Notes: generated from the letters alone by a model not told the origin. A DNA stretch of 24,336 nt from a virus (IMGVR_UViG_2740892113_000002), one strand, 5' to 3'; positions 22,924 through 23,615 are shown, counted from the stretch's first letter. Numbers and translations: made by a program.

Positions 22924-23028
22924 GGATATTTATCAGGATTTATCGGTTTCTGAGCCCTGGATATGTTTATCAGTTCCAGCCTGTTGCCTCAGGCTGCTAA
23001 CAGGTCAATACAATCATGAGGATTATTT

Positions 23029-23301
23029 ATGGACAATAACACCATTTCTCTACAGGAGTTGCTCGACAGCATTTCCAGGCTTCGGGAAGACGTGAATACC
23101 CTTACCGTCGCCTTCTCATATCTGGCATTCTCAATTCCAAGGGAACAGATGCAATCAACGCTGGCATCAATCCAGTTTGAATCATGCAATCCCAAATGGT
23201 CTCAGGAACAACAAGACTCTTTCAGGCGGCTTGCTGTATTACTGGATGAAAAATATGCTGGTAAAATTACCATTTCGGCGGACTCTTCAGAGAACCCGTA
23301 A
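23029..23301 (+). CDS. Hypothetical 90-aa protein on the opposite strand inside the lysis cassette (candidate moron)
   Basis: ATG with GAGGA RBS at good spacing. Possible promoter (TTGCCT…TACAAT) just upstream. AT-rich local composition. No family recognised. Confidence 0.4.
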   Translation: MDNNTISLQELLDSISRLREDVNTLTVAFSYLAFSIPREQMQSTLASIQFESCNPKWSQEQQDSFRRLAVLLDEKYAGKITISADSSENP

Positions 23302-23611
23302 TTATTCCCGGTAGTTTTCCTCTGTAGGTTATCAACACATCCTGCGCCTCTAAAATTACGGGGCGCTTTTCCGGCGACTGCTCATCCCCTTCACATAACC
23401 CGGCAGCAACATCCAGGAAGACCTGTCTGATGCTCCTTCTGGCTGCTGCCTCATAAAACTCCAGCGCGGCACCTTCAACACGGTCCAGCGAGATGTCCAG
23501 GTCAAAAATTTCACCGTCAAAGCGTTTTTTGTCCCGTAACGCTAAAGTTACCGTAACTTTATTCTCAAAATTGCGGATCCCTTTCACAATCAGTTCATAG
23601 TTTTGAGTCAT
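23267..23611 (-). CDS. Hypothetical 114-aa soluble acidic protein between the holin and endolysin genes
   Basis: ATG 4 nt downstream of the holin stop, suggesting coupling. No transmembrane segment. No family recognised. Confidence 0.45.
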   Translation of the reverse strand: MTQNYELIVKGIRNFENKVTVTLALRDKKRFDGEIFDLDISLDRVEGAALEFYEAAARRSIRQVFLDVAAGLCEGDEQSPEKRPVILEAQDVLITYRGKLPGIITGSLKSPPKW

Positions 23612-23615
23612 TGAA

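Follow-up and report, generated by a model that had tools for sequence, protein, structure and literature searches.

What function could two small genes, one of them on the opposite strand, have between the pinholin and the endolysin of a phage? This question is raised by positions 22,924 to 23,615 of a viral DNA of 24,336 nucleotides (IMGVR_UViG_2740892113_000002; the whole stretch is referred to below as the window). The minus strand of the window carries, in this order, a gene for an S21-type pinholin, a 114-codon gene (ydfR) and a gene for a lysozyme-family endolysin, and a 90-codon plus-strand gene, here called orf90, converges with ydfR. The window matches Escherichia phage vB_EcoS-783R2 (ON470626) at 100% identity, and in the record of this phage the locus is annotated as holin S, a 'putative YdfR family protein', an opposite-strand hypothetical protein and lysozyme R. 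An earlier note made from the sequence alone had placed two unassigned genes between pinholin and endolysin and had taken them for an accessory cargo pair, possibly a lysis regulator or a defence-type moron. The open reading frames (ORFs) are all present where that note had located them.

As the comparisons described below indicate, orf90 represents one allele of a cassette that can be swapped as a unit. A conserved leader, a variable small ORF and the convergent gene's matching 3' end make up this cassette. It was also shown that this cassette, together with the late-gene 3' end, moves between lysis and tail loci. As for its role, we lean towards a moron-like accessory module of two genes in the late operon and away from a lysis-control device, although this account, with the mechanism proposed for it, is held at somewhat less than even confidence.

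Identity of ydfR and coding status of orf90

The 114-aa protein belongs to DUF1327/YdfR, a recognised family, and its gene is in the usual place of that family. It matched PF07041 with 145.2 bits (cut-off, 25), residues 1-111 being aligned to positions 1-91 of the 93 in the profile, and phrog_406 over its full length (E = 4e-68). In RefSeq it bears the name 'YdfR family protein' and is annotated in thousands of genomes at exactly this position between holin and endolysin; ydfR-family DNA was found at 8334 places in 4304 of 5426 complete E. coli genomes (~79%). The view that both genes were unassigned thus applies to orf90 only, whose family, PHROG 2411, carries no assigned function. The description of the 114-aa product as soluble, acidic and coupled to the holin stop was borne out. 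The ATG of ydfR lies 4 nt after the stop codon of the holin gene, which as upstream neighbour also carries the ydfR ribosome-binding site (GGAGAG, 7 nt upstream). The protein is mildly acidic (pI 5.5) and has no membrane segment, its maximum Kyte-Doolittle hydropathy over 19 residues being 0.69 compared with 1.70 for the holin.

The Qin prophage of E. coli K-12 shows the same order, essQ-ydfR-rrrQ, with a YdfR of the same family flanked by an S21-type holin (essQ) and a lysozyme (rrrQ), and with an equally tight coupling to the holin stop. The two YdfR proteins are 81% identical over residues 1-74 and unrelated beyond (BLASTP), so that they diverge after residue 74: the K-12 protein ends in ...YTIKINSSDNSITGC, whereas that of the window ends in ...ITGSLKSPPKW. 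Furthermore, K-12 ydfR overlaps the start of rrrQ and has no convergent gene, unlike ydfR of the window. In an AlphaFold2 (AF2) model of the window protein, the N-terminal domain was predicted to form three beta strands followed by a long helix, with a predicted local distance difference test score (pLDDT) of 65-86 over residues 5-72, and confidence was low over residues 73-114. In the one functional study found in the literature (PMC13232886, RNA Biol 2026), a two-hybrid screen recovered residues 1-72 of K-12 YdfR. Two-hybrid signals with the catalytic half of RNase E (residues 1-597) are reported for this fragment and for the full-length protein, RNase E 1-598 eluted together with Strep-YdfR, and nucleic acid resistant to DNase came down with YdfR; growth arrest was reported only for YegJ, and the authors left the function of YdfR open. 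Judging from homology to the K-12 protein, the YdfR allele of the window probably binds RNase E and may also bind RNA.

The convergent plus-strand ORF, which overlaps the 3' end of ydfR as the earlier note had described (Table 1), is a true coding gene under purifying selection. Its ATG is preceded at a distance of 6 nt by the Shine-Dalgarno sequence GAGGA, and both elements are conserved among relatives. The frame was intact in all of the nine DNA homologues compared, among which the median dN/dS in the frame of orf90 was 0.26 and the variable sites at codon positions 1, 2 and 3 numbered 45, 34 and 99, respectively. In addition, full-length homologues were found down to 25-40% identity, including those of Yersinia and Citrobacter. 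The alternative that orf90 is no gene at all, but a frame open by chance or one that mirrors a gene on the minus strand, draws on a minus-strand ORF of 68 aa (22989..23195), whose wobble positions are shared with orf90 and which, uninterrupted for 68 codons in the window, has an apparent dN/dS of 0.20. A low apparent value is expected for a frame that shares wobble positions in this manner. The antisense frame was rejected as a true gene because it is broken at varying sites, with stops at different positions in six of the loci compared (L003, L005, L006, L007, L012, and L013; L numbers denote loci throughout), whereas the plus frame is intact in all of them, and because the codon-position variability fits the plus frame, in which position 2 is less variable than position 1. 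The non-gene alternative, at odds also with the conserved start signals and with the full-length homologues of as little as 25% identity, was rejected by the frame and codon-position tests, and we consider it exceedingly improbable.

ORF90 is a soluble, acidic protein (pI 4.5; maximum 19-residue hydropathy, 0.75), for which AF2 predicted four helices (residues 8-20, 22-32, 38-52, and 59-77) and a disordered tail at a mean pLDDT of 70. The match to PHROG 2411 spans residues 1-90 of 90. No Pfam family, and no NCBIfam family above its cut-off, was obtained for ORF90; a match to the NCBIfam anti-silencing protein Mip was dismissed, as it covered 15 residues and scored 13.7 bits against a cut-off of 50. 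Foldseek searches for the fold of ORF90 in PDB and BFVD returned nothing useful, and sequence-profile searches of solved structures returned no match below E = 0.4. The earlier note had named conservation, structure prediction and profile searches as checks. Both ORFs proved to be conserved and both proteins could be modelled; ORF90 had no known-fold match, the family of YdfR is known but has no assigned function, and neither ydfR nor orf90 matched a family with a known lysis role.

The gene orf90 was present in 1119-1124 of the 5426 complete E. coli genomes (~21%), including ST131, CFT073, and APEC O18, where it is annotated as 'hypothetical protein'; of 50,697 deposited phage genomes, only 3 contained it. 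The locus is 100% identical in ST131 and strain 120899 and 87% identical in CFT073. The protein family is small, since 20 members were recovered when 1.84 billion representative proteins were searched exhaustively with a profile. Distant relatives of ORF90 could not be placed in JGI metagenome contigs, and scans of viral contigs with single proteins found no relatives. Literature searches for ORF90 (ybl58, PHROG 2411) found nothing, and for DUF1327 one genomics paper came up.

A conserved leader followed by exchangeable cargo genes

A common leader was found 5' of ORF90-type genes in all contexts. It consists of the box CCCTGG-W-TAT-K-D-T, a hairpin whose stem varies in sequence, the box GCYGATAAC, and then a Shine-Dalgarno sequence; the window contains the short E. 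coli form (Table 1). In nine leaders of the long form, the hairpin was 95.8% paired and compensatory changes occurred at 5 of 8 pairs. This covariation was matched in none of 500 shuffles, and slid controls collapsed. A search of Rfam 15 gave no covariance-model match at E ≤ 1 in positions 22700-24000. The proposal that orf90 has its own ribosome-binding site and possibly a promoter was upheld in its first part, and what occupies the place of the supposed promoter is the conserved hairpin leader. The −10-like hexamers TATGTT and TACAAT were recognised by eye in the conserved leader. CsrA-type GGA loops and an extended −10 were also considered by eye, but no claim is made for them, as they are inconsistent across cassette types. 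Long-form cassettes have a late-strand hairpin resembling an intrinsic terminator just beyond the leader (L014, 1023-1040; L017, 3359-3376; L018, 3333-3349), at which a late-strand transcript that is not antiterminated would stop after crossing the cargo gene in antisense. The short-form leader of the window does not have this hairpin.

Every intact ORF90-family gene examined was convergent with a late-strand gene whose product has the motif I-x-G-x-L-x-x-P at its C-terminus, the endings being ITGSLKSPPKW, ITGSLRAPIKL, IIGSLITPPEL, IFGDLKKPPSY, ITGSLRVPMKL, and ITGSLFAP.... The N-termini of these partners differ (a DUF1327 domain, a coiled coil, or a 238-aa protein) despite the common motif. 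The coding of ORF90 cannot constrain the motif, because it is kept where the two genes overlap by only 7-14 nt. Block exchange was seen in L014, L106, and L108 (Atlantibacter/IMG phages), whose identity is 92-100% from gpM up to partner codon 43 and again from the leader into gpL; across the partner C-terminus and the small ORF it is only 25-50%. ORF90 is inherited together with the 3' part of ydfR, as a single block. A widespread YdfR of E. coli, 176 aa in length, has another C-terminal extension, and its gene is convergent with an 86-aa gene (phrog_2572) preceded by a leader of the same type.

A scan of IMG/VR for the long-form leader identified 116 loci, 114 of which had an ORF of 60-118 aa directly behind the leader. 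These cargo ORFs fell into 13 clusters unrelated to one another in sequence, and the only Pfam match among them was DUF1883 in a single cluster. This cluster, number 2 (19 loci; PF08980, E = 2e-26), is seemingly beta-rich, unlike the other cargos, and in 11 of its 19 loci no convergent partner ORF was seen. ORF90 itself was treated as unrelated to alternative cargos, with profile-profile E values of 0.005 (L106), 0.29 (L108), and 0.39 (L111). Over 64 distinct pairs, the cargo family predicted the last 12 residues of the partner far better than the first 12, the adjusted mutual information (AMI) being 0.85 and 0.31, respectively. The K-12-type tail of YdfR (...NSITGC) pairs elsewhere with cargo cluster 4, and therefore K-12 Qin appears to have lost its cargo. 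No description of this architecture, namely a shared leader, a swappable cargo, a covarying partner C-terminus and at least two insertion sites, was found in the searchable literature.

Occupied loci and competing explanations

The positions of the cassettes bear directly on the regulation of lysis, which the earlier note had put forward. The two genes might provide an antiholin-like timer, an inhibitor or releaser of a signal-arrest-release (SAR) endolysin, or antisense control of the endolysin mRNA by a duplex of 270 nt between orf90 and the late transcript. Such a role would suit the 69 of 114 long-leader cassettes that lie directly before an R21-type endolysin, 52 of them downstream of an S21 holin and a YdfR N-domain, and it would suit the translational coupling of ydfR to the holin. 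It would also suit the late transcript of the window, on which the endolysin start is located 343 nt past the ydfR stop and most of the gap is antisense to orf90 and its leader. However, 25 of the 114 cassettes lie between gpM and gpL and 4 lie after gpI, and clusters 3 and 4 of the cargos were each found at lysis as well as tail loci. The family of ORF90 behaves in the same way: relatives were found between tail genes M (PF05939) and L (PF05100) in L014 and L015, after tail assembly gene I in Yersinia (L018), and in front of other holin/endolysin sets in Citrobacter (L017 and L104). In phiSTEC1575-Stx2k (L003, 1390-3408), the S21-ydfR-orf90 block precedes an unrelated lysis set composed of two holin-family genes and an M15 metallopeptidase gene. 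Moreover, working phage 21-type cassettes lack both genes, and neither protein has a membrane or periplasmic segment. The S21-71 antiholin, T4 RI, and the phage Mu 'releasin' are membrane-anchored or periplasmic lysis regulators. The present pair resembles them in its position inside a pinholin/endolysin cassette and differs from them in that YdfR and ORF90 are devoid of a hydrophobic segment and the cassette occurs outside lysis loci as well. Because it also sits in tail loci, we regard a lysis-specific role as very unlikely. As a separate observation, phiSTEC1575-Stx2k thus has a pinholin without its SAR endolysin.

The accessory nature of the two genes, on the other hand, was supported. Close relatives lack one or both of them or have other genes in their place (PhiR40_1, K-12 Qin, and phage 21-type cassettes), and their G+C content is 45-48% (ORF90, 45%) compared with 56% for the whole window. 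PhiR40_1 and many other phages have a ydfR of 116 aa and no ORF90; these loci look like deletion derivatives, because remnants of the ORF90 leader persist in them. Conversely, L007 and L008 contain an ORF90 relative between holin and endolysin together with only a remnant of the ydfR tail and no DUF1327 domain. The interpretation as an accessory moron-like module fits this mobility across loci, and the low G+C content is also consistent with it.

Cargo decay was exemplified by L102 and L103 of Salmonella enterica (3161-3421), in which the ORF90 homologue is internally deleted so that the leader is fused to its last ~25 codons, while the convergent 63-aa partner is intact. Toxin-antitoxin genes were also noted near the cassette: a ParE/ParD-like pair downstream of the endolysin in L007 and L008 (1589-2123), and HicA/HicB adjoining the cassette in Citrobacter (L017, 4587-5270) and Salmonella (L102, 73-710). 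The occurrence of such pairs 1-2.5 kb from the cassette in several prophages suggests a general hotspot for accessory genes around lysis genes. That ydfR and orf90 themselves form a type II toxin-antitoxin pair was not supported, as the genes are convergent and no toxin-antitoxin domains were found in Pfam.

The bor and lom genes of lambda are autonomously expressed accessory genes inside late regions. Like these morons, orf90 is small, lies in a late region, has a lower G+C content and varies among relatives, and it shares the opposite orientation with bor. It differs from lambda morons in that scans of the window recognised no sigma-70 promoter or terminator of its own, in being always convergent and swapped with a late-gene 3' end, and in having a structured leader that is common to unrelated cargos. 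Its predicted cytoplasmic product is also unlike an envelope lipoprotein of the Bor type.

According to the favoured account of an accessory module, ydfR would be read with the late/lysis transcript, and its translation would be coupled to that of the pinholin. The product would be a cytoplasmic protein with the conserved DUF1327 N-domain and a short variable C-terminal tail, and, by homology to K-12 YdfR, the N-domain probably binds RNase E through the catalytic half of that enzyme. The gene orf90 is a separate convergent gene behind its own hairpin leader, one of many interchangeable cargo ORFs that fill the slot, and encodes a small acidic protein with a helical model; cargo and convergent-gene 3' end are swapped as a unit between otherwise near-identical phages. 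The promoter of orf90 would be located in or before the leader. Since its transcription would run counter to that of the late operon, orf90 would be expressed chiefly in the lysogen, and during lytic growth it would be silenced by late transcription or interfere with it. The ORF90 product may act jointly with the YdfR tail that matches it, in the simplest case by binding this tail. We infer both this protein-protein pairing and the timing of orf90 expression.

Several observations weigh against this account. About 85% of the ydfR places in the E. coli genomes are without ORF90, and since ydfR often exists without cargo (the 116-aa form and K-12 Qin), ydfR and orf90 can work independently. Because tail and cargo are adjacent or overlapping, their covariation is explicable by linkage alone. 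Scans of the window found neither a consensus sigma-70 promoter upstream of orf90 nor a terminator after it. Finally, overexpression of K-12 YdfR altered few transcripts, and the interaction with RNase E is known only from two-hybrid and pull-down experiments with overproduced protein (PMC13232886). An alternative is that the two genes are independent neighbours, ydfR being a late accessory gene and orf90 an unrelated moron at a recombination hotspot set by the conserved leader together with the upstream gene's 3' end, with products that are linked neither functionally nor physically. The many places of ydfR without ORF90, the ORF90 relatives of L007 and L008 beside a mere tail remnant, and cargo families as unrelated in sequence as expected of a generic insertion slot all agree with it, and linkage alone would account for the AMI of 0.85. 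It does not readily explain the retention of I-x-G-x-L-x-x-P at the protein level beside ORF90 relatives of only 25-40% identity, even at the shortest overlaps. We regard independent neighbours as a serious possibility, if on the whole an unlikely one. Confidence in a cognate pair is tempered accordingly, because linkage explains the covariation and ydfR occurs mostly without cargo.

CdiA-CT/CdiI and Rhs-CT/immunity systems combine a constant N-terminus, a variable C-terminus and an adjacent cognate small gene. The present module may be analogous to them, as its conserved N-terminal part (DUF1327 or coiled coil) gives way abruptly to a variable C-terminal part, this variable part covaries with the small ORF, and the flanks are nearly identical. 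It is unlike them in that the small gene is convergent, the variable part in the window is a short tail, no toxin domain is detectable, overproduced K-12 YdfR affected few transcripts (PMC13232886) and there is no secretion apparatus. Phage proteins that target RNase E, such as Dip (gp37) of phiKZ, were also counted among the closest known systems. A more specific reading would be that of an apparently undescribed class of polymorphic two-component modules of Enterobacterales lambdoid prophages, in which a late protein with constant N-terminus (often the DUF1327 domain) and variable C-terminus and a cognate convergent small protein, made from the conserved structured leader, would form a specificity pair (effector/antagonist or sensor/effector) in phage-host or phage-phage conflict. 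Convergent transcription would provide the switching between lysogenic and lytic states, and the unit exchanged between phages and between lysis and tail loci is the C-terminus with the small gene. We rate this reading as a whole as rather unlikely.

It has also to be considered that orf90, alone or with YdfR, is a prophage-expressed gene for defence, superinfection exclusion or conflict, whose cargo alleles reflect an arms race. The orientation opposite to the late operon, as in bor-type morons of lambda, the low G+C content and the presence of at least 13 unrelated cargo families behind one leader are compatible with such a function, as is the distribution of orf90, common in prophages and rare in deposited phage genomes. 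Against this, a search of PADLOC-DB 2.0 with six proteins (both window proteins and relatives) matched no family at E ≤ 1, profile searches detected no enzymatic or sensor domain in ORF90 or YdfR, and the selection on ORF90 is purifying, not diversifying. A defence function is distinctly unlikely in our estimation.

Surrounding features and significance of the cassette

The features of the locus are listed in Table 1. The holin has a dual start at M1 and M4 (MYQMEK...), like S21-71/S21-68. A holin ORF of 97 aa that had been listed (region 23832-23909) is a spurious 5' extension which crosses the terminator-like hairpin at 23899..23871; it was taken as an over-extension because this strong hairpin sits just upstream of the holin start. 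The N-terminus of the endolysin is weakly hydrophobic and rich in Ala and Gly, and E-x8-D-x5-T is present (sequence and hydropathy); the N-terminus is consistent with a putative SAR anchor. An open frame of 169 aa antisense to the endolysin gene (22586-23095, plus strand) was considered a non-coding shadow.

Table 1. Positions of genes, domains and leader elements at the ydfR-orf90 locus of the window
Feature	Position	Strand	Basis
orf90, 90 aa, convergent with ydfR	23029..23301	+	phrog_2411, E = 1e-58
ydfR, 114 aa	23267..23611	-	PF07041 (DUF1327), E = 7e-43
ydfR N-terminal domain, residues 1-72	23396..23611	-	PF07041; AF2; BLASTP against K-12 YdfR
ydfR C-terminal part, residues 73-114, ending ...GKLPGIITGSLKSPPKW	23267..23395	-	Alignment; loci L005, L006, L007, L014, L017, L018
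Overlap of convergent ydfR and orf90 3' ends, 35 nt	23267..23301	.	ORF coordinates and sequence
Cassette leader, short E. coli form	22955..23028	+	Comparison of upstream regions
Leader box CCCTGGATATGTT	22955-22967	+	Unique in window
Leader hairpin CAGCCTG-TTGCCT-CAGGCTG	22977-22996	+	Upstream comparison
Leader box GGCTGCTAAC	22992-23001	+	Unique in window
Leader hexamer TACAAT	23009-23014	+	By eye
Shine-Dalgarno sequence GAGGA	23018-23022	+	Upstream comparison
S21-type class II (pin)holin, 71 aa	23616..23831	-	PF04971, E = 2e-32
Terminator-like hairpin (12 pairs and T-run) upstream of holin start, at the position of lambda tR'	23871..23899	-	Terminator scan
Lysozyme-family endolysin, 177 aa, downstream neighbour	22390..22923	-	PF00959, E = 9e-24

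It is already known that ydfR lies between holin and endolysin, where it is annotated, and ORF90 is already annotated as a hypothetical protein. The present comparison shows that S21-type cassettes have, at the junction of holin and endolysin, a hotspot for an interchangeable antisense cassette, and two isolated 'hypothetical proteins' become a defined, testable system with a natural allelic series. If the pairs are not functional, the locus would represent an ordinary moron hotspot. If they are functional, they would constitute a new kind of prophage accessory module and would provide a handle on the question of why a phage late protein binds RNase E.
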